NCBI GenBank assembly: GCA_963743215.1
Contig: CAVUOY010000009.1
Span: forward strand, 29,709-93,708
Source of the DNA: an uncultured Chloroflexia bacterium
GTDB taxonomy: Bacteria; Chloroflexota; Anaerolineae; Anaerolineales; UBA4823
Direction: 5' to 3'
Length of the DNA stretch: 64,000 bases
Position numbers and translations under genes: made by a program. Of the stretch, positions 42,122 through 54,733 are shown in pieces. Below the pieces are notes generated by a model. The model saw nothing but the letters and a program-made list of their open reading frames with translations. It had not been told where the DNA came from and made no database searches. Each line of letters opens with the position of its first letter. Position 1 is the first letter of the stretch.

Positions 42122-43618
42122 ATGATGCGTTTAAATCCATTTAGAAGATTCAGGACATTCCGCGGTGTGGAATACCTGCTTGCCGTCCTGGTGACGGTGA
42201 TTTTTACCCTGATCTTCCTGCCCTTCCGTAGTGCTGGTGGACAGGATCACACGGTTTTGTCCCTTCTATACCTGCTACCGGTCGTGCTGAGCTCGTTATT
42301 ATGGGGGCTAGGTCCAGGGGCGCTGGTGGCGTTGGCTTCATTTCTGGCATTAAACTATTTTTTCGTGGCGCCGTACTACACCTTGCTGGTACATCGCACC
42401 CAAGATTTAGTGGTGTTGATTGTCTTTTTAGGAGTTTCAATCACCATCGGGCAATTAGTCGGCAGGGTGAGTAAAAGCTTGAATGAATCCACCGCCCGAG
42501 AACATGAAGCCATTCACTTGTATGAGTTGATCATGCATCTGGCAGGCTTACAGGATGAGCAGGAAATCGTATCCACTTTGGCTGAGCAAACCCTGATTGC
42601 ATTGCATGCCGACCGGATCGACGTTTTAGTTGAAGCCCAAGGCAGCCTGCCTGCCCGTCACGTCAGGATGGCCGATCGCTCAAAAACGGGTTTTCTCCTG
42701 GAAGATTCTCCCACTTATATTACCCCTTTGCAGTCGGCGCGTGGTTTTCTCGGAGAGATCAAGGTATGGCGCGAGGTAGCCTCGCTTACCCATGCGGAGG
42801 AACGCCTGCTGCAAACTTTTGCCAGCCAGGGGGTACAGGCGTTGGAGAGAGTTCGCCTCTCGCAGGCAGCTTCGCGGGCGCGTCTGCTGGAGGAAAGTGA
42901 CCGGTTTAAGTCCTCCCTGTTATCGTCAGTTTCCCATGAGCTGCGCACTCCTCTGGCAACGATTAAAGCCGCTGTCACCAGCTTGCGTAGTGGCACGGTT
43001 GAATGGGATACAGAGGCGCGTGCAGATTTATTGGCAGCCGTGGAAGAGGAAACCGATCACCTGAACCAGCTGGTGGGCAACTTGCTGAACATGTCGCGCA
43101 TCGAAGCCGGTGCATTAAAACCGGAACGGAGCTGGAATTCACTGGCTGAGATCATTCAAAGTGCCCTCGAGCGGATGAGGACCCAAATCGAGAAGCACAA
43201 AATCGAAGTGGACGTCTCGGCTGACCTACCGCTAGTACCGGTGGATTATTTTCAAATTGAGCAAGTATTTATTAACCTAATCAGTAATAGCACCAAATAC
43301 TCCCCAGCAGGCACGACAATTGCTATTCATGCTGAAGCGGTGATCTCAGAGCATTTATTGATATCGGTAAAGAATCAGGGTCCACACGTGGCTGAAGAAC
43401 ATCTGGATCGTATTTTCGACAAATTCTTCCGGGTTACGGCTGCGGACCGGGTTACTGGGGCAGGGTTGGGGTTAAGTATTTGCAAGGGGATTATTGATGC
43501 CCATGGAGGGCGCATATGGGCGGAAAACCTGGACAGGGGTTTCGGCTTCAACTTTACATTGCCCCTTACCTGGGAAGGTTTTGCCCTGGGAACTCAGCAG
43601 GAGATAATTGACGAATGA
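42122..43618 (+). CDS. kdpD: KdpD-like sensor kinase (4-TM DUF4118, GAF and kinase; no N-terminal cytoplasmic KdpD/Usp domains)
   Basis: LYLLPVV, LNYFFVAPYYTL, SSVSHELRTPL, NLLNMSRIEAG, GLGLSICKGII. Confidence 0.85.
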   Translation: MMRLNPFRRFRTFRGVEYLLAVLVTVIFTLIFLPFRSAGGQDHTVLSLLYLLPVVLSSLLWGLGPGALVALASFLALNYFFVAPYYTLLVHRTQDLVVLIVFLGVSITIGQLVGRVSKSLNESTAREHEAIHLYELIMHLAGLQDEQEIVSTLAEQTLIALHADRIDVLVEAQGSLPARHVRMADRSKTGFLLEDSPTYITPLQSARGFLGEIKVWREVASLTHAEERLLQTFASQGVQALERVRLSQAASRARLLEESDRFKSSLLSSVSHELRTPLATIKAAVTSLRSGTVEWDTEARADLLAAVEEETDHLNQLVGNLLNMSRIEAGALKPERSWNSLAEIIQSALERMRTQIEKHKIEVDVSADLPLVPVDYFQIEQVFINLISNSTKYSPAGTTIAIHAEAVISEHLLISVKNQGPHVAEEHLDRIFDKFFRVTAADRVTGAGLGLSICKGIIDAHGGRIWAENLDRGFGFNFTLPLTWEGFALGTQQEIIDE

Positions 43619-44313
43619 CCTCTCAGCCGCACATCTTAGTCATCGATGATGAAGCACAAATCCTGCGGGCGCTACGCACTATCCTGACTGCCAAGCAATT
43701 CAAAGTGAGTGTTGCCAGCCGGGGTGAAGAAGGGCTGACCATGGCAGCGGCCCAGCCGCCCGATTTGATCATCCTGGACCTAAGCCTGCCAGATATGGAT
43801 GGTGTGGAGGTTTGTGCCCGCTTGCGTGAGTGGACCCAGGTACCCATCATCATCCTTTCAGTACGCGAAAGTGAGCGCGATAAGGTCATTGCCCTGGATA
43901 AAGGTGCTGATGATTACCTGACCAAGCCATTCGGAATTGAGGAGCTTCTGGCGCGCATCCGGGTGGCATTGCGCCATTCTGCCCAGACCCTTGGCAGCCA
44001 AAAAAGCCAGATCATCACGGTCGGATCCGTCGTGATTGATCTGGCGCTACATACCGTTACCCGCGCTGGGGAGGAAGTCAAGCTGACCGCTAAAGAATTC
44101 AAGCTGCTGGCTTACCTGGCCGCTAATGCAGGTCGGGTTTTAACCAACCAATCGATCCTTACCCATGTATGGGAGCCAGCGGATGCAGACCGGGTGGAAT
44201 ATCTGCGCGTATATATCCGGCAGCTGCGAAAAAAATTAGAAGACGACCCAGACAACCCGTGCGTTATACGCAACGAGCCAGGCATTGGGTATCGTTTCCT
44301 GATGGATGAGTAA
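43615..44313 (+). CDS. kdpE: KdpE-type response regulator (OmpR family)
   Basis: ILDLSLPDMDG, VPIIILS, GADDYLTKPF, YLRVYIRQLRKKLE.DP, EPGIGYR. Confidence 0.88.
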   Translation: MTSQPHILVIDDEAQILRALRTILTAKQFKVSVASRGEEGLTMAAAQPPDLIILDLSLPDMDGVEVCARLREWTQVPIIILSVRESERDKVIALDKGADDYLTKPFGIEELLARIRVALRHSAQTLGSQKSQIITVGSVVIDLALHTVTRAGEEVKLTAKEFKLLAYLAANAGRVLTNQSILTHVWEPADADRVEYLRVYIRQLRKKLEDDPDNPCVIRNEPGIGYRFLMDE

Positions 44314-44381
44314 CTTTTTGTGGATTTGGAGATATGCTTGGAATATAGAGTAGAGTACAATTAGCAAGTTTGGGAGATGAA

Positions 44382-45518
44382 ATGGCCAAAAAAACTCAAT
44401 CCAAGAAATTAATCGACCCATATCCTGGGTTAGAGGATAGTGCAGTCAGCCAGCTGCGCCAGGAGTTGCTTAGCTATCAGGAACTACTCCAAGCGCAGCC
44501 TCCACTCGTGCAGCGATTTTTGGAGACACAGGCCTCCTCGCTGGCAGAGGCGGTCGTTCAAGGTTTACCCCAGGCGCGTTTCACGTTGCCTGATCGGGTT
44601 GTGCTTCAAAAGGAGGCGGAGGCGAAACCAGCAATTGTGCCAAAGGAAGCGCGCGAGCAGATGACGGGTGGACTGATGGACCGCCTGACGCGCACCGACT
44701 TGCGCACTGCCCTACGCTTGCGCCTGGGAGAGCTGGAACAATCCTCGAACCGTTCGGTCGCGGTTAGCGCAGGGCTCTTACGCCATGCAGTGGTCAGGCA
44801 TATGATACGCAATATGCTGCCAGCTGGTCGAACGGTACGGTACATAGTGAGTGAAGGCGAAGAAATTCCCAGCGTCCCGAAGAAGAGCGACTGGGAGCCA
44901 GAGTCGGCCATCACTGCCTCGACGGATGCCATCGCCGCAGAAGATGAGCGAGAAGAGGCAGGCAGAGGTGAGCTGTTGGTGCCCTATGTGGAAGCGGCAC
45001 GGCGATTTTACTTGCCCCAATGGGTTGCATTTGATGATGAAGGACGTCTCCTGGTGGGAAGCGTGAATGAGGCTGAGGCGGATATCGGCTCCATGCAGCG
45101 TTATATATCGGTTTTGCATGCTGCGGTGGGGCTGGCACCCTACATGGTAGCGGATGAGGAATACCAGCGCAAGCGTTATGGAATATTAGGCCAGCTGGTG
45201 AATCAGGGAAGAGCTTTGGCGCACTACCAGGTGGAAGAAATCATTCAGACCATCCATCGTAGAGCTTCCTCACATGACTTAAACAGGGGATTGAGTCTGA
45301 GCCTGCCGTACTTTAATGACCAAACGCTGGCGATGGAGAACTATAGTTTCGAAGTAATTCCAGCCGGGCGGATCATGTTTGTGCCGGCTTTCGTAGTGCG
45401 GGCGGCGCGCGAGCAAGAAGCGAAAATTGCCCAGGATACACGCCTGAGCCAATCCACACGCAAGCACTTGCTCGTAGAGCTCCGTAATCTTGATCAAGCA
45501 TTTTCTCAATTAGAATGA
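44382..45518 (+). CDS. hypothetical soluble protein, copy 1
   Basis: Long ORF with GGAG RBS and no TM segment. Clear paralog at 47527-48654. Confidence 0.88.
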   Translation: MAKKTQSKKLIDPYPGLEDSAVSQLRQELLSYQELLQAQPPLVQRFLETQASSLAEAVVQGLPQARFTLPDRVVLQKEAEAKPAIVPKEAREQMTGGLMDRLTRTDLRTALRLRLGELEQSSNRSVAVSAGLLRHAVVRHMIRNMLPAGRTVRYIVSEGEEIPSVPKKSDWEPESAITASTDAIAAEDEREEAGRGELLVPYVEAARRFYLPQWVAFDDEGRLLVGSVNEAEADIGSMQRYISVLHAAVGLAPYMVADEEYQRKRYGILGQLVNQGRALAHYQVEEIIQTIHRRASSHDLNRGLSLSLPYFNDQTLAMENYSFEVIPAGRIMFVPAFVVRAAREQEAKIAQDTRLSQSTRKHLLVELRNLDQAFSQLE

Positions 45519-45540
45519 TTAACAGTGATCGGTATTCGAT

Positions 45541-47370
45541 ATGATATTTTCGATTGGTCTTCTGATCGTTATAGCTTACTTAGCCTACCGAGCCTCGCCT
45601 CGTGAGCGACAGGAGGACGCGCACGTACATGGCGCCGGGCAGATAGGTTTATTGGCCGCGATTGCACTCTTTGGGGTGGATTATTTCACTTCGTTCTTCT
45701 ATGCAACGGGCGAGATGATGAGCTCATTGCACCCATACGGATTACAGAAATACGGATATATCGCTGTAGCCTTCATTGCTTTCGCGAATGCAGTCTTCGG
45801 ATTTTTATACATGTATTCGTTGGGCATCTTCAACGAGGGTGGCGGATCCTATACTGCCTCCATGCGTTACCTTACGCCGGCCCTGAGCCTGATCGTGGCA
45901 GTTGTGCTTATTCAGGATTATATTTTTACAATTGTTGTATCCACTCTCTCCGGAGTAGATCAAGCGCTGTCCCTGCGCAATGCCACCGGGATACCGTGGT
46001 TTTGGCATTTTCTAATAGCGGCGATTTTGGTTTCAATAAACTACTTCCTGACGATCCGTGGGAGGGGCGAATCGGCACGGGTGGTTTTCATTATGCTGTT
46101 CGTCTTTGTTTTGCTCACGGTGACAATGGCTTTTGGGTTATTTCGAGCCAGCGCAGTGGGTGTGCCAGCTTTACCCATGCTTGAACAACCAACAACTGTT
46201 CCTATCGGCAAGGCCTTATACCACATGTTAACTGCCTCGATGAAAGGACTGGTCGCCCTGAGTGGTTTGGAAGCCATGTCGAATGGCATCCAATTCGTCA
46301 AGAACGAGGATGCCGGGATTGTCAAGTGGGGTAAACGCCGGCTTCCACGTCTCAAAGGGCTGTGGGCATTCTATAGTGGGAAATCGGGCATCGGGCGGAT
46401 AGTCCAGACCTCATTTTTGTTCTATGGTGGGATCAGCACTTTACTTCTGGCTGAATTTGCCATTCGTTTCGATGCCTTTGATGGTACGATGGGGCGTACC
46501 CTCGTCGGGAACCTGGCATTCATCGGATTCGGTCAGATCCAGGGCGGAGTTATATTGTTCTGGGCATACCAGATACTGGCAGTCGGGCTTTTAACTGCCG
46601 CCTCGATGACTGCATTCCAAGATCTGCAAGCGACCGCCTGGCGGGATGTTGCCATTGGTGAAATCCCCGAAGTTGTTGTGTACCGCAATCCAGCTGGGAC
46701 GTTCACACGCTCGGTGACCGCAGGATTTATCATTTCATTGGTGATTATGTTGATTTTGCGCGCTAAACAGTCAGCCGCTGTCCCCTATTATGGCATCGGT
46801 GTGTTCATGCCTATCATGGTCATGGGGTTGGCGATTCGTAAACATATATTGGCAAAATTTTCCGGCAGGGTGCGTAAATGGGGCAGCACGGGGGCATTGT
46901 TCGCTGCAATTTTAGCCGGGCTTGTTTTTATCGGTCAGATCGTAGGTAAATGGACTGAAGGTGGTTGGGTGGTGCTCATTTCATTCAGTGTGCTTGTACT
47001 GACTGCGAATGGATTGCTCATTTCTCCCATCGGTTATCGCGACGTTAAGCAAATTCACCGTATTGTGCGCGAGAAAGCCCGCGTTCAGGGTTCGATGGGT
47101 TCTATTGTCGAGTGGCAATCCTTAAAGATGCAGGAGTATCGATATGCGTTGCTGATATTCATCACCCGTTTTTTCGAGGTTTTGGGTGTGCGTAGACCTT
47201 TACGCTTCGAACCTCCTATCGAAGCCGGGACATATGATGAAGCCGTACACTCCGATCACCCTGAAGCGCCTTCACTTTTAGCTCAATACCTTGAGAAAGA
47301 AGAAAAACCCAAGGTGGGTGGCAAACCAAAGGAAACTGCCCCCGGAGACGACCCCTCAAAATTGCCATAA
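45541..47370 (+). CDS. APC-superfamily transporter, KimA/YdaO-like, copy 1
   Basis: About 12-13 TMs. GVDYFTSFFY, GGGSY, QDYIFTIVVS and ALSGLEAMSNG parallel recalled KimA motifs. Confidence 0.75.
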   Translation: MIFSIGLLIVIAYLAYRASPRERQEDAHVHGAGQIGLLAAIALFGVDYFTSFFYATGEMMSSLHPYGLQKYGYIAVAFIAFANAVFGFLYMYSLGIFNEGGGSYTASMRYLTPALSLIVAVVLIQDYIFTIVVSTLSGVDQALSLRNATGIPWFWHFLIAAILVSINYFLTIRGRGESARVVFIMLFVFVLLTVTMAFGLFRASAVGVPALPMLEQPTTVPIGKALYHMLTASMKGLVALSGLEAMSNGIQFVKNEDAGIVKWGKRRLPRLKGLWAFYSGKSGIGRIVQTSFLFYGGISTLLLAEFAIRFDAFDGTMGRTLVGNLAFIGFGQIQGGVILFWAYQILAVGLLTAASMTAFQDLQATAWRDVAIGEIPEVVVYRNPAGTFTRSVTAGFIISLVIMLILRAKQSAAVPYYGIGVFMPIMVMGLAIRKHILAKFSGRVRKWGSTGALFAAILAGLVFIGQIVGKWTEGGWVVLISFSVLVLTANGLLISPIGYRDVKQIHRIVREKARVQGSMGSIVEWQSLKMQEYRYALLIFITRFFEVLGVRRPLRFEPPIEAGTYDEAVHSDHPEAPSLLAQYLEKEEKPKVGGKPKETAPGDDPSKLP

Positions 47371-47391
47371 AAACCTCACAAAGTACGTCTC

Positions 47392-47430
47392 AAAGACCTC
47401 CCAGTACTTGGGAGGTCTTTATTCTTTTTT
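47392..47430 (+). terminator. rho-independent terminator between the duplicated cassettes
   Basis: AAAGACCTCCCA-gtact-TGGGAGGTCTTT followed by a T-rich tail. Confidence 0.85.
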
Positions 47431-47526
47431 AATGCCTTTGCCTAAATTATTTGTCTCCATTTTATTCTGACTCGATAGAATATTACTGAAAATCAAGAGG
47501 GCTCAGATCAAGACCCAGAGGATTTT

Positions 47527-48654
47527 ATGGAAGATCATGCGCAACTAATTACCCAAATCACTCTAAGCATTCCCACCGGAGTTGTGAGTCAATTTCGGCA
47601 TGAATATCTTAGTCACCAGGCGCAATTGCAGGATCAAGCGCCGCTGGTGCAACGGTATCTCGAGATTAATGCCGCCTCGCTGGCTGAAGCTGTTGTGCAG
47701 GGGTTAATGCAAGTCCGATTTTCCCTGCCCGACCAAGTGGCCATACGCGATCATGATTCGGATGTAAATACTCTACCCGTGCCTGCTGAATCTCGGGAAC
47801 AGATGATCGGTGGATTAATGGATCGCTTGATTCGCACTGACCTGCGTACAGCCTTACGAACTCGTTTTTTGGAATTGGAAGCTTCCATGAACCAGGCATT
47901 ATCTATGAGTGCCATTCTATTGCGGCATGCCGTGGTGCTGCACTTGGTGCACAACATGCTGCCATCCGGGAATACCGTCCAATATGAGTTAGAAGAAGGG
48001 GAAGAAATCCCGACCATACCTGTATCGATTAAGGCGATGTCGGGATCGGCTATCACAGAAATGTCTTATGGGGGCACGAAAGGGGATGCTCATGCTGAGA
48101 CCAGGCGGGGTGAGCTGTCAGTGCCTTATGTTGAGGCAGCGCGACGATTTTACCTGCCACAATGGGTGGCATTTGACAATGATTTAAGTTTATTGGTGGG
48201 GAGTATAAGCGAAGCCGAGGCAGTTATTGCCTCGATGCAGCGTTATTTGTCGGTATTGCATGCTGCGGTGGGATTAACACCCTACATGGTGGCGGACAAG
48301 GAATATCAGCAAAAGCGTTATGGGATCCTGGGTCAGTTGGTGAACCAGGGACGAGCCCTGGCACACTATCAGGTGATGGAGATCGTTCAGACGATTCAAC
48401 GCCGGGCAGCATCGCATGACCTAGACCGTGGTTTGAGTTTGAGTCTGCCGTATTTTAATGATCAAACGCTGAAGAAGGAAGAATATAACTTCGATGTGAT
48501 CCCGGCAGGGAGGGTGATGTTTGTACCGGCGTTTGTCGTTTTAGCTGTCCGAGCGCAAGGAGCGAAAGTTGCTCAAGACACGCGCATGAGCCAGTCAACA
48601 CGCAGGCATCTGCTGGCAGAGTTGGGGTTGCTGGAGCAAATATTTTCGAGGTAA
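47527..48654 (+). CDS. hypothetical soluble protein, copy 2
   Basis: Shares PYVEAARRFYLPQWVAFD, KRYGILGQLVNQGRALAHYQV and RGLSLSLPYFNDQTL with copy 1. Confidence 0.88.
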   Translation: MEDHAQLITQITLSIPTGVVSQFRHEYLSHQAQLQDQAPLVQRYLEINAASLAEAVVQGLMQVRFSLPDQVAIRDHDSDVNTLPVPAESREQMIGGLMDRLIRTDLRTALRTRFLELEASMNQALSMSAILLRHAVVLHLVHNMLPSGNTVQYELEEGEEIPTIPVSIKAMSGSAITEMSYGGTKGDAHAETRRGELSVPYVEAARRFYLPQWVAFDNDLSLLVGSISEAEAVIASMQRYLSVLHAAVGLTPYMVADKEYQQKRYGILGQLVNQGRALAHYQVMEIVQTIQRRAASHDLDRGLSLSLPYFNDQTLKKEEYNFDVIPAGRVMFVPAFVVLAVRAQGAKVAQDTRMSQSTRRHLLAELGLLEQIFSR

Positions 48655-48657
48655 AAA

Positions 48658-50484
48658 ATGTTTTTTTCGATTGGTTTATTGATTGTCATTACTTATTTGA
48701 TGTACCGTATCTCGCCACGCGAGCGGGCCGAGGATGCACATGTACACGGTGCAGGGCAGATTGGTTTGCTTGCTGCCGTGGCACTTTTTGGAGTGGATTA
48801 CTTCACTTCGTTCTATTATGCTACAGGCGAGATGATGAGTGCACTGCACCCATATGGGCTGCAGAAATGGGGATTCGTTGCGGTAGCAGTGATTGCCATA
48901 GCAAACGCAGTTTTTGGTATTCTGTACATGTACTCGCTGGGGATATTTAACGAAGGTGGTGGATCTTATACTGCCTCGATGCGCTACTTGTCCGCCGGGA
49001 TCAGTCTTATCGTGGCGGTCGTTCTGATCCAGGACTATATTTTCACCATCGTCGTATCCACCCTGTCAGGAGTGGACCAGGCACTATCACTGCGCGGTGC
49101 CACAGGAATACCCTGGATATGGCATTTTCTCATCGGCGCAGCTCTGGTAACCATTAATTGGTTCCTGACCATCCGTGGAAGAGGAGAATCCGGAAGGGTG
49201 GTATTCACCTTATTGGGTGTCTTTATCCTGATGACTGTTACCATGGCAGTTGGTTTATTTATGGCTCATTTTGGTGGTGTTGCCGCTGTACCAATATCAG
49301 CATCGCCTCAATCGGTAACCATAGGCCGAGCGCTATATCACTTTCTCACTGCCTCTATGAAGGGATTGGTTGCGCTTACGGGTTTGGAAGCCATGTCGAA
49401 TGGAATCCAGTTTGTCAAGAATGAGGATGCCGGAATTATCGCCTGGGGCAAGAAGCGCCTGCCGCGCTGGAAGAAAATTTGGGAATTCTATAGCGGAAAA
49501 TCGGGCATTGGACGGATTGTTCAGACTTCATTCCTGTTCTATGGTGGGGTTACTACATTAATGTTATCCGCGTTTTCCATCCGTTTTGATGTATTTGATG
49601 GCACCTTGGGGCGTACATTGGTTGGCAACCTGGCATTTATCGGTTTTTCACAAATCCCCGGTGGCACGGTTCTTTTCTGGGCATATCAAATCTTAGCGGT
49701 GTTGTTGTTGACTGCAGCTTCCATGACCGCTTTTCAGGACCTCCAAGCAACGGAGTGGCGCGATGTTTCCATTGGTGAAATACCTGAGATCATTGTCTAT
49801 CGTGACCCACGGGGTACTTTTACCCGTTCTGTAACTATTAGCTACGTATTAACCATGATCATTATGTTTATCGTCAAAGGTAATACTTCAGCGGCAATCC
49901 CATATTATGGTGTAGGTGTATTCATGCCTATCATGGTCATGGGTTTCTCGATCCGTAAGCATATACTCCAGAATTTTACTGGACGCGTTCGTAAATGGGG
50001 CAGCCTGGGGGCTGGATTTGCCGCTATTCTTTCAGCAATCGTATTCCTTGGCCAAATTGTAGGAAAGTGGCAAGAAGGCGGTTGGGTTGTGTTAATATCA
50101 TTCAGTGTGTTGATTCTGGCTGCCAATGCCCTGCTCATTTCACCGATTGGCATTCGTACACCGAAGCAGATCCATCGCATTGTGCGTGAAAAAGCTCGTG
50201 TGCAAGGCTCGATGGCTTCCATTGTGGAATGGCAATCCTTGAAGATGCAGGAATATCGTTATGCTGTACTTATGGCAATCACCCATTTCTTTGAATTGCT
50301 TGGCGTGCATCGACCTGTGCGATACGACCCACCCATCCCGGCGGGTGATTATGACCATGCCTTACATAGCGATCATCCGGAAGCCCCTTCTTTCCTGGCG
50401 CAATATCTGGACAAGAAAGAACCGCCTCGTCTGGGGGGAAAACCCAAGGAGACTGCTCCAGTGCATGAAGGTCACACGCCCTGA
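48658..50484 (+). CDS. APC-superfamily transporter, KimA/YdaO-like, copy 2
   Basis: Colinear paralog of 45541-47370. ALTGLEAMSNG. Confidence 0.75.
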   Translation: MFFSIGLLIVITYLMYRISPRERAEDAHVHGAGQIGLLAAVALFGVDYFTSFYYATGEMMSALHPYGLQKWGFVAVAVIAIANAVFGILYMYSLGIFNEGGGSYTASMRYLSAGISLIVAVVLIQDYIFTIVVSTLSGVDQALSLRGATGIPWIWHFLIGAALVTINWFLTIRGRGESGRVVFTLLGVFILMTVTMAVGLFMAHFGGVAAVPISASPQSVTIGRALYHFLTASMKGLVALTGLEAMSNGIQFVKNEDAGIIAWGKKRLPRWKKIWEFYSGKSGIGRIVQTSFLFYGGVTTLMLSAFSIRFDVFDGTLGRTLVGNLAFIGFSQIPGGTVLFWAYQILAVLLLTAASMTAFQDLQATEWRDVSIGEIPEIIVYRDPRGTFTRSVTISYVLTMIIMFIVKGNTSAAIPYYGVGVFMPIMVMGFSIRKHILQNFTGRVRKWGSLGAGFAAILSAIVFLGQIVGKWQEGGWVVLISFSVLILAANALLISPIGIRTPKQIHRIVREKARVQGSMASIVEWQSLKMQEYRYAVLMAITHFFELLGVHRPVRYDPPIPAGDYDHALHSDHPEAPSFLAQYLDKKEPPRLGGKPKETAPVHEGHTP

Positions 50485-50561
50485 TAGCAGGTAAACCAGT
50501 AAATTAACGACCACAGTCGATATGATAAAATCCCTTTGCACGAAATTGCAAAGGGATTTTT

Positions 50562-53406
50562 ATGGTCTCTGACCCAATCTACGTCCTGCCTGTATCGGAT
50601 GTGTTTCCTTCCTTGGAGACTTCGCCCCATGGTCTATCCATCAGTGAGGTCGAAGCACGCCGCTCATTGTATGGCAGGAACCAGCTTACCGAGCCGCCCA
50701 GCGAGCCTGCCTGGAGAAAACTATTTGGATTTATCACTCATCCCATGGCACTCCTACTGTGGGCTGCGGGTGGGATTGCTTTATGGCTGCGTGAACCCAC
50801 CCTGGGGGTGATCATCTGGATTGTAGTGCTGGTGAATGCCGCTTTTTCCTACTGGCGGGAATACCGGGCGGAACAAGCGACGGCCGCATTGCAGCACCTA
50901 TTACCAAGTTATGCCCGGGTGATCCGCGACGGTGTGGAAGTCAAAGTGTCTGCGGGTGACCTGGTGCCGGGGGATGTCCTCGTCCTGGCAGAGGGGGATA
51001 ACATCCCGGCGGATGCACGTGTGGTTGAAGAATATGGCTTGCGCGCCAACAATGCGGTGCTCACGGGTGAGGCTGTGCCGGCGCGCAAGACCGCCGATGC
51101 CTCGCTGCAAGAGGGGATCAGTGAGGTGGAACGCCCCAACCTGATCTTCACCGGCACTTCAGTGGTCTCGGGGACAGGCCGGGCGGTGGTATATGCTACG
51201 GGCATGCTCACCCAGTTTGGGCGCATTGTCCGACTTACCCAGGCAGTGCATGAAGAACCCAGCCGGTTACAGCAGGAAATGTCTCGGCTGACACGTACCA
51301 TATCCTTTTTTGCCCTGGGATTGGGGGTGATCGTTTTTGCGGTGGGCATTGTGGACGTCAAGATGGGGATCAACGAGGCGTTCATCCTGGCATTAGGCAT
51401 CATTGTAGCAACCATCCCTGAAGGCCTTCCAGCCACGGTCACCCTGTCCTTGGCTGTTGCGGTACAGCGGTTGGCCCAGAAAGGCGTGCTGGTCAAGAAG
51501 CTGTCCATCCTGGAAACGCTGGAGCACGTATCGGTTATCTGCACTGATAAAAGTGGCACCCTGACCCAAAACCAGATGACGGTCCGCCAGGTGTGGGTCA
51601 GTGGAAAGCCATTGGTGGTCACTGGAACAGGTTATGAGCCGGTAGGCGAGTTTGTGCCTAATCTGGGCAGCGAGGCAGCCGAGAGAGATCTACAAGCCCT
51701 GCTCACCGCAGCCATGTTATGCAATAACTCACGCTTGAACCCACCCTCCCCAGACTTCCCCCATTGGACAGTGCTCGGTGACCAAACAGAAGCCGCGTTA
51801 CGCGTGCTGGCGTTAAAAAATGGGCTGACGGAAGAGGCATTTAATAAAACCCTTCCCCGCATCCATGAAATCCCCTTTGATGCCCGGCGGAAACGGATGA
51901 GCACTATTCATCAAGTAAATCGACCAGAGTTTGCTTTCTCCGCATATTCCCGTCGGGCAGCAGGTAGCCTTTATCAAAGGCGCCCCGCGTGAAGTTTTGC
52001 AGCTTTGTACTCACCTGCGCATGCATGGTGAAGTGATCCCGCTGGATGACAGCCATCGGGCGAGGATTTTATCTGCCAATGACGATTATGCCCGCAATGC
52101 TTTGCGGGTGTTGGCACTCGCATATCATGAATTACCTCCTCGCGTGGGTAGTTATACCGCCGAGAGGGTTGAAGTGAACTTGATATTCCTGGGTCTGACC
52201 GCCATGATGGACCCCCCACGCCCGGAAGTGACGGAAGCAGTCAGCACATGCCGTAAAGCCGGCGTGCGTATGGTGATGATCACTGGCGACTACGGTCTGA
52301 CTGCAGAATTGTTGGCCAGGCGCATCGGCATGCTTACGACAATGAGCCCGTTGATCCTGACCGGCGCAGAATTGGAAAGGCTCAACGATATTGAGCTGGA
52401 AGGAATTCTTGACAAGGAAGTAATATTTGCCCGCATGGCACCAGAGCATAAATTGCGCCTGGTGGCAGCCTACCAAGCACGCGGGGATGTGGTTGCAGTG
52501 ACTGGTGATGGAGTCAACGATGCACCTGCCCTGCGTAAAGCAGATGTAGGCGTGGCAATGGGCCTGGTTGGGACTGATGTTGCCAAGGAAGCTGCGGACG
52601 TCATCCTGACCAATGATAACTTTTCTACCATCGCTCGCGCCATCGAAGAGGGGCGCACGGTGTATGACAACCTGCGCAAGTTCACCACCTATATCTTCTC
52701 GAGCAATGTGCCTGAGATTTTACCTTTCATCCTCACCGCATTGCTCAACCCGCAGGTAATGCCGCTCGCCTTGGGGGTCAAGCAGATCCTGGCCATAGAC
52801 CTGGGAACCGACCTGTTCCCTGCCCTGGCACTGGGAAGCGAGAACCCGGAGCGGGACGTGATGCAGCGCCCACCACGGAGCAAGTCTCAACCTCTCGTGG
52901 ATGGCCGTTTGCTGCGGCGGGCGTTTTTATGGTTGGGATTGATTGAGGCAGGCTTATGTTTTGGAGCATTCTTCTTCATCAATAACGGGCTGGATATCCC
53001 ATTCTTTCAATCCCTGCATGCCAGGATATTCTCCGTCGTTCCACACGAAGAGCAACACAACCTGGCAATCACGGTCTATTATGCCGGGGTGGTCATGGCA
53101 CAGATCGGGAATGCTTTCGCATGCCGCACTGAACGCAACCGTGGCCGCTTCCTCGGGTGGTTCAGTAATCCCACCCTGTTGCGTGGGATTATTATTGAGC
53201 TGGCGATCCTGCTTGGGTTAATTTATCTAAAGCCGTTGGCTGATCTATTTGGTCATATAGCCATACCGCCGGTATTATGGATTGGGCTGATCTTCTTTCC
53301 GCTGATCATCTACAGCCTGGATTGGATCCGCAAGATGCTCATCCGCTTGCGGGAACATCTGGTACAGCAAGTGATTAATAGTTCTGTGAGCAAGGAGGAA
53401 ACATGA
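50562..53406 (+). CDS. P2-type cation-transporting ATPase, P2C (Na+/K+, H+/K+)-like (frameshift near 51945)
   Basis: LTGEA, IPEGL, DKSGTLTQNQM, KGAP, TGD, GDGVND, SSNVPEI, ILAIDLGTD. Confidence 0.9.
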
Positions 53407-54062
53407 AGGTAATCATTATTGGATGTGGTCGGGTCGGAGAGCAGCTGGCGCGTTTGCTCGTCGACGAAGGTCACCAGGTGTCGGTGATCGATTACGATGC
53501 CAATGCCCTGGCACGCCTGGGACCAAATTTTAAAGGCAAAACGATGATTGGGGTGGGATTTGATCGTGATTTATTGATCAAAGCCGGGATTGAGCAAGCG
53601 GATGCTTTTGCCGCTGCTAGCTCATCCGACAATGCCAACATCGTTGCGGCTCGTATCGCCCACAACATCTTCCACGCGCCCCGCGTGGTAGCCCGCCTTT
53701 TTGACCCACAAAGGGCTGAGATTTATCGCCGCCTGGGTATGTTGACCATCTCATCGACCACCTGGGGGGCAGAACGCCTGCGTGAGATGCTCACTTCTGC
53801 GGAGATGGATCCAATCATCAGCTTTGGCAGTGGCGAAGTGAGCCTGGTTAATATCGAAATCCCATCTCACCTTGCAGGGCGCATCGTGAAGAACCTGTCG
53901 GTCCCGGCTGAAACGGTGGTAGTAGCCATTACCCGCCAGGGGGCAGCCTTCATTCCCACCTTGGGGAGTGAGCTCAAGGAAGGTGATGTGGTCCATTTAG
54001 CACTCCTGGCTTCAGCCCTGGAACGTTTCAAAACCCTGATCGGACTCGTGGAAGGAGGGTGA
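53403..54062 (+). CDS. trkA: TrkA/KtrA family RCK protein
   Basis: IIGCGRVG Rossmann motif, AGIEQAD, C-terminal RCK_C domain. Confidence 0.92.
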   Translation: MKVIIIGCGRVGEQLARLLVDEGHQVSVIDYDANALARLGPNFKGKTMIGVGFDRDLLIKAGIEQADAFAAASSSDNANIVAARIAHNIFHAPRVVARLFDPQRAEIYRRLGMLTISSTTWGAERLREMLTSAEMDPIISFGSGEVSLVNIEIPSHLAGRIVKNLSVPAETVVVAITRQGAAFIPTLGSELKEGDVVHLALLASALERFKTLIGLVEGG

Positions 54063-54063
54063 C

Positions 54064-54733
54064 ATGTTTGTCATCATAGTCGGTGGTGGTAAGACTGGTT
54101 CGCAGCTCGCCACACAATTGCTCAGTGGTGGACATCAAGTTAAATTAATCGAAGATCGCCCGGCAGTATTAGAAAAGCTTCGGCAAGAACTTCCCGTAGA
54201 TATTGTTGTGGCTGGAGATGGCAGCTCGCCCAGTGTGCTCGAAAGCGCAGGGATTGAACACGCCAATGTGTTAGCAGCCGTCACCGGTGAAGACGAAGAT
54301 AACCTGGTGATCACCACATTGGGACGGTTTGAATTTGGGGTGCCGCGCATCATTGCCCGCGTGAATAATCCTAAAAACGTGTGGCTGTTCACCCCGGAGA
54401 TGGGTGTGGATGTGGCTCTAAGCCAATCAGACATCCTGGCCAAGCTGATTGCAGAGGAAATGTCGCTCGGCGATATGATGACCCTGCTTAAACTACGCAA
54501 GGGCGAGTTTTCCATCGTCGAAGAGAAAGTGGATCCAAGGGCAGTGGTGGTGGGTAAAATGCTGCGCGATATTAATCTGACCTCCCCAATGCGTTTTTGC
54601 GGCAATCATCCGCAAGGGTCAGCTCATCGTACCGAATGGAAACACCGAGCTGGCGCCAGTGGATGAGGTGATCGCATTGGTGCATGCCTCTCAGGTGACT
54701 AAATTAGCCGAGCTTTTGGGTCGTCCAACCTAG
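54064..54733 (+). CDS. trkA: second TrkA/KtrA family RCK protein (frameshift near 54580)
   Basis: IVGGGKTG, VTGEDEDNL, IIARVNNPKN. The RCK_C end AIIRKGQLIVPNGNTEL...DEV is in a shifted frame ending at TAG 54733. Confidence 0.9.

Follow-up and report, generated by a model that had tools for sequence, protein, structure and literature searches.

The window analysed here is a stretch of 64,000 nucleotides (nt) from an uncultured Chloroflexia bacterium (assembly GCA_963743215.1, contig CAVUOY010000009.1). It carries, all on the forward strand and in this order, a kdpD-like and a kdpE-like gene, X1, T1, X2, T2, a gene for a type II P-type ATPase and two trkA genes. X1 (44382..45518; 378 amino acids (aa) counted from the ATG, with an in-frame TTG at 44370) and X2 (47527..48654; 375 aa) encode paralogous soluble proteins of no known family, and T1 (45541..47370) and T2 (48658..50484) encode KimA-like (KUP, LeuT-fold) transporters. 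As an earlier reading of the letters alone (the sequence-only reading) had noticed, each X gene lies directly upstream of a transporter gene, the distance from X stop to T start being 22 nt for X1-T1 and 3 nt for X2-T2. These two copies of X and of T are the only ones found in the source genome (G000), which is 80% complete. The X-T operon is genuine: it represents an undescribed form of a known transporter type, and its partner protein matched none of the families tested.

When T was compared with solved sequences at an E value of 0.001, KimA was the only match (residues 31-487 of T, E 1.5e-15), and KimA was also the best fold match (E 2.5e-12) of the T model, which has a predicted local distance difference test score (pLDDT) of 79.5. 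With KimA residue numbering mapped onto T via sequence alignment, the equivalents of D36, Y43, D117, Y118, S125, E233 and Y377 are invariant in 70/70 aligned T sequences, the T230 equivalent is S or T, and the R337 equivalent is E in all 70. PMC6994465 and PMC10284832 assign roles in K+ binding and proton coupling to KimA residues, and from the conservation of these positions we infer that T imports K+ with protons (K+/H+ symport). At five further loci (L084, L085, L155, L206, L259), T, with or without X, has kdpE, full-length kdpD and an ATPase gene of KdpB size as neighbours, which supports a role connected with potassium.

In the characterised KimA, the domain for regulation and dimer formation is part of the transporter chain itself (PMC6994465, PMC10284832), the swapped cytosolic domains form the main dimer interface (PMC6994465), and Arg337 contacts cyclic di-AMP (c-di-AMP) without being essential for inhibition (PMC10284832). 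No such PPAT-like, c-di-AMP-binding cytosolic domain was found in T: the match to KimA stops at residue 487 and no β-sheet domain is modelled after the membrane part, and the identical search does detect the KimA domain in a fused relative of T. What follows the membrane part instead is two extra helices and a conserved tail that is modelled with low confidence (residues 552-584; 47194..47292 in T1). Judged by sequence and model, T is best described as a KimA-like transporter lacking the KimA cytosolic domain. It has the membrane domain, fold and ion residues of KimA (YdaO) of Bacillus subtilis (KimA subfamily of KUP K+/H+ symporters; PDB 6S3K, 8B70, 8B71), and differs by the missing PPAT-like domain, the extra helices and conserved tail, the Glu at the Arg337 position and the presence of a separate upstream gene, X. 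Some T proteins (L017, L021, L033, L063, L065, L066) carry C-terminal extensions of 55-115 residues rich in Pro, Glu and Ala.

X1 and X2 are identical at 241/356 positions (68%; BLASTP, E 8e-174) and contain all four of the shared blocks on which the sequence-only reading had relied. Its statements that X has neither a transmembrane segment nor a recognisable motif also hold: the most hydrophobic 19-residue Kyte-Doolittle window of X1 scores 1.37, a single window of 1.83 in X2 (residue 323) is modelled as a strand and a helix inside a soluble fold, and no Pfam or NCBIfam model matches X above cut-off. The X model, built from a 99-sequence alignment, is confident (pLDDT 90.9, predicted template modelling score 0.87) and mostly helical, with one β hairpin. 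Despite this confidence, a fold search with the model, as had been proposed, gave no clear match, and profile searches gave no family, enzyme families included; the N-terminal half was barely probed by the wide fold search. No TrkA_N or TrkA_C (RCK) domain matched X1, X2 or 97 homologues, whereas the TrkA genes nearby do match. Nor was any relationship between X and the KimA cytosolic domain detected: hhalign gave probabilities of 0.5-0.9% for whole X, its N-terminal half and its C-terminal domain against a shallow target alignment of 8 sequences. Set beside the five-stranded parallel sheet of a PPAT-like fold, the X model is mostly helical, and KimA is absent among the X fold matches listed, with the same restriction for the N-terminal half. 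An internal repeat within X gained no support (hhalign under 2%).

The family is large, with at least 3,661 matches among 7,997 scored candidates, and with 361 clusters at 50% identity. No longer, fused forms were seen among 7,993 candidates, which is weak evidence. Named relatives come from Anaerolineales and other Chloroflexota, apart from one 1.5-kb contig that bears the label Thiobacillus. We found no published description of the family in the literature covered, which was main texts with few subscription papers among them. The best conserved stretches of X lie in its C-terminal domain (L300-N-R-G, P309-Y-F-D-D, I326-P-x-G-R, T359-R), where R302, D313, R330 and R360 are near-invariant charged residues.

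The linkage of X to T extends well beyond the window. Among 220 distinct X genes, the next gene is T in 207, the P-type ATPase gene in 8 and an unrelated gene in 1, and the contig ends in 4; the loci were gathered largely with X queries and include the 2 copies of the source genome. When 401 genomes were sampled evenly across the order, X was present in 78 and T in 86, with both in 77, X only in 1 and T only in 9, the joint figures being obtained by comparison of the X and T lists, in which kin genomes are not independent. In a phylum-wide sample, 3 of 401 genomes had X and 4 had T, too few to judge co-occurrence. X-T units also stand without the ATPase, at 20 loci, and two genomes that are both 89% complete (G571, G651) have X and T with no operon-type ATPase found. 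Paired mutual information between X and T (144 pairs, effective number 94) reached a top z of 9.2, compared with 8.0-8.4 in two shuffles, and did so at variable sites.

The X-T pair was held to have been duplicated as a unit and kept intact despite many silent differences. Both copies are indeed intact: T1 and T2 are 79% identical, and the 374 aligned X1/X2 codons comprise 103 identical codons, 138 silent differences and 133 residue changes. These codon differences and the DNA identity of the copies (65% for X, 70% for T) therefore mark the duplication as old. One caveat is that X2 changes faster than X1. Within the window's genus the ratio of nonsynonymous to synonymous substitution rates (dN/dS) is 0.05-0.15 for X2 and 0.04-0.07 for X1, and higher for X2 in 9/10 genome pairs, with dS mostly saturated. 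The drift of X2 is concentrated in its N-terminal half: dN relative to relatives is 0.22-0.39 for residues 15-200 and 0.08-0.11 for residues 270-378 of X2, against 0.04-0.13 and 0.03-0.09 for X1, in 4/4 comparisons each. T1 and T2 are equally constrained.

The part of X2 that is spared also occurs by itself. We found eight intact mini-X genes of ~135-180 codons in 5 genomes of 2 families, each preceding a T gene and accompanying extra T copies, that match residues ~271-376 of X1 only. This segment corresponds to the C-terminal domain of X1 (residues 271-376, 45192..45509), modelled as a helix, a β hairpin and two helices. Mini-X proteins are 38-67% identical in pairs, and the proportion of nonsynonymous differences was below that of synonymous differences in 28/28 pairs. 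Because mini-X genes stand before extra T copies and the drift of X2 spares the C-terminal half, this domain of ~105 residues is, on sequence grounds, likely the T-binding unit that each T needs.

A further line of evidence comes from the T-only genomes. In 8/9 of these, T carries a C-terminal KimA-type cytosolic domain (E 4e-16 to KimA 468-604), and X is missing upstream of all 7 complete fusions, the eighth lying in two contig pieces. The fused domain replaces the conserved distal T tail, which is present in 26/26 displayed non-fused T genes. The 7 complete fusions share a branch with two X-type T genes (99% support in a quick tree whose root is unsure), and so they look derived, by one or two events. 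The order X-T-ATPase-canonical KimA-TrkA-TrkA is seen at one locus (L065), and a deletion in such an order could yield a T::KimA-domain fusion. The interval from kdpE to T or X often contains an unnamed gene of ~230 aa, as is the case in front of most of the fusions (L082:13455-14150 on the reverse strand, L031, L034, L146, L149, L150, L153, L160, L247, L248); this gene has no Pfam or NCBIfam match, and by eye its product consists of an α/β domain and two C-terminal hydrophobic helices, the latter sometimes absent.

The reading that we favour, and to which we give about an even chance, is that T is a K+/H+ importer of the KimA type to which X belongs as a separately encoded subunit in the cytoplasm, and that the C-terminal domain of X docks on the cytoplasmic tail of T, where it would stabilise or gate the transporter. 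The domain would act in trans as the KimA domain does in cis, in dimer support or gating, with the distal tail (residues 552-584) as putative docking site and one X C-terminal domain used by each T. The N-terminal half and the loop at residues 175-201 may carry a regulatory input that is needed once per cell, perhaps a signal relayed from the co-encoded P-type ATPase/TrkA module. A once-per-cell requirement would account for the way in which extra X copies erode, N-terminal part first, to mini-X. A branch that dropped the KimA domain and gained a separate protein of unmatched fold, with one lineage swapping back, would show modular control of a transporter family, for which full X, mini-X and the fused domain are natural variants. 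X is also a large, well-modelled family without a clear structural match; the reach of the system looks narrow, as the X records found are nearly all from uncultured Chloroflexota.

The sequence-only reading had X as a dedicated subunit or regulator of its transporter, possibly sensing a ligand. The strong genetic link and the lack of any enzyme family bear out the idea of a subunit or regulator, but "dedicated" is too strong, and ligand sensing gained no support from anything tested. Several observations weigh against an exclusive X-T partnership. Among the eight X genes that run straight into the P-type ATPase gene, T lies elsewhere in the locus in three cases (L113, L191, L215), no T is seen in four, and in the last (L037) an internally deleted T remnant remains between X and the ATPase gene (L037:11080-11461). 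One genome (G561) has an orphan X, no X stands immediately before 9/96 complete non-fused T genes, two relatives (L006, L007) have X1-type genes in front of T2-type transporters, and no X was found in the T-only genome G717 (74% complete), whose T retains the tail. In 24 operons outside the window's genus, X and T distances are uncorrelated (Spearman 0.0, with 162/300 permutations as high), while X distances correlate with those of the ATPase and of TrkA1 (0.48 and 0.59; 0/300 permutations). T distances correlate weakly with all operon neighbours, which suggests that T alleles are exchanged between operons. The relaxed selection on X2 points the same way, and the fusions do not single out T as the partner of X, because they are confined to one clade and also lack the ATPase.

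The ATPase tracks X just as tightly as T does. An operon-type ATPase (56% identity or more) was found in 68/71 X-bearing genomes, in 0/9 T-only genomes and in 0/80 X-negative genomes, and hence in X-bearing genomes only among those searched; the 71 were drawn from the 78 X-bearing genomes by leaving out 7 of the window's genus, source genome included, the 80 from 314 genomes having neither X nor T, and the cut-off would miss short fragments. The loop of X1 (SAIT..TDAI..E...RG.L.VP; 44904..44984), which is poorly modelled in the monomer and degraded in X2, seems at first sight to follow the ATPase as well. It is intact in 67/67 sole X genes of ATPase operons, a count that is circular because the loop positions were chosen from that set, in 6/20 X genes at loci without the ATPase, and in none of the three X-bearing genomes lacking the ATPase, where it is degraded. 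In operons with two full X genes, it is best kept in one copy in 17/18, 16 of the 18 being close kin. An independent-pairs test of loop against ATPase had 3 pairs, 1 concordant and 2 uninformative (p 1), and loop loss occurs on generally long branches. General relaxation of spare X copies explains the loop pattern equally well.

X could be a two-ended adaptor of new fold: its C-terminal domain, standing in for the c-di-AMP domain, would grip the KimA-type K+/H+ symporter, and the N-terminal half and loop would grip the Na/K-pump-like P-type ATPase or the TrkA pair. We regard this as possible but doubtful; were it true, potassium would be handled by one regulated machine made of a primary pump and a secondary importer, the latter outside direct c-di-AMP control. 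It is rather unlikely, in our view, that X serves chiefly the ATPase and the two TrkA/RCK proteins, as their partner or regulator, and adjoins T through the shared operon only. The co-occurrence, the X genes that lead directly into the ATPase, the distance correlations and the state of the loop all favour such a role, but X is duplicated with T and never with the ATPase in the 18 two-full-X operons, mini-X genes go with extra T copies, X-T units exist without the ATPase, and the loop argument suffers from its circularity, its uninformative pairs and the long branches.

X as a free enzyme or small-molecule sensor of new fold, affecting K+ balance without touching the transporter, is an unlikely explanation. 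The confident, mostly helical fold, the four near-invariant charged residues, which could line a pocket, and a diadenylate cyclase encoded in the source genome (contig C14) would fit it, but neither the family searches nor the structural ones linked X to an enzyme or a nucleotide-binding fold, and a diffusible activity would not call for one copy ahead of every T or for a mini form of 105 residues. We think it quite unlikely that X acts on T transiently as an assembly factor, in folding or dimer formation, rather than as a lasting regulatory subunit. T does lack the swapped domains through which KimA dimerises, and the loose X-T pairing fits a generic helper, but this role would leave unexplained why one copy per operon retains the loop almost unchanged. 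Finally, it is highly improbable that X supplies the short KdpD kinase with a detached input domain in place of the N-terminal cytoplasmic region that the kinase lacks: this KdpD does begin late and X1 starts 68 nt after kdpE with no terminator-like site between them, but X shows no similarity to KdpD families, the short KdpD and KdpE persist in fusion operons where X is absent, kdpDE does not adjoin X-T in many operons, and the copy number of X rises with that of T and not with that of KdpD.

In KtrAB, TrkAH and KhtTU, the transporter likewise has a soluble regulatory subunit as a protein of its own, and these partners are RCK-domain proteins. The proposed X-T arrangement resembles them in pairing a membrane transporter gene with a soluble partner gene, and differs in that X has no RCK match and the two true TrkA genes stand separately, at the operon end. 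KtrAB and KhtTU are named as c-di-AMP-regulated in PMC10284832. In the source genome, two TrkA genes are found with no TrkH or KtrB detected at its 80% completeness.

The kinase gene that heads the operon (42122..43618; DUF4118, HisKA, HATPase) matches KdpD model positions 403-883 of 895 with a score below cut-off, so that its product begins at the membrane domain and has none of the ~400 model positions of the long N-terminal cytoplasmic region of full KdpD. The adjoining response regulator gene (43615..44313) has KdpE as top match (E 7e-72, also below cut-off). Because these genes head the operon, it may be controlled by K+ limitation; the pair lies here upstream of X-T rather than of kdpFABC, and kdpA is on another contig (C12). 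An intrinsic-terminator-like hairpin of 13 pairs with a T run (47392..47430) parts T1 from X2, and together with a promoter-like stretch downstream it is kept in 9/9 aligned relatives, so that the X2-T2 unit may be under its own promoter.

The type II P-type ATPase gene (50562..53406) encodes the motifs PEGLPAT, SSNVPEI and LAIDLGTD, which we take to resemble ion-site motifs of the Na/K-ATPase; neither the Ca nor the Na,H/K model matches the protein above cut-off. It is followed by the genes for TrkA/RCK protein 1 (53403..54062), which has a TrkA domain match, and TrkA/RCK protein 2 (54064..54733). Judged against the closest relative, in which the ATPase is a single 947-aa frame, one extra base near 51939 splits the ATPase gene and one near 54580 shifts the frame of the second trkA gene. 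The canonical KimA of the source genome is likewise broken into several frames, and since all three are frame-broken, assembly indel errors are likely. Immediately before the ATPase start, a second hairpin (ATCCCTTTGC...GCAAAGGGAT) with a T run at 50524-50551 may limit read-through.

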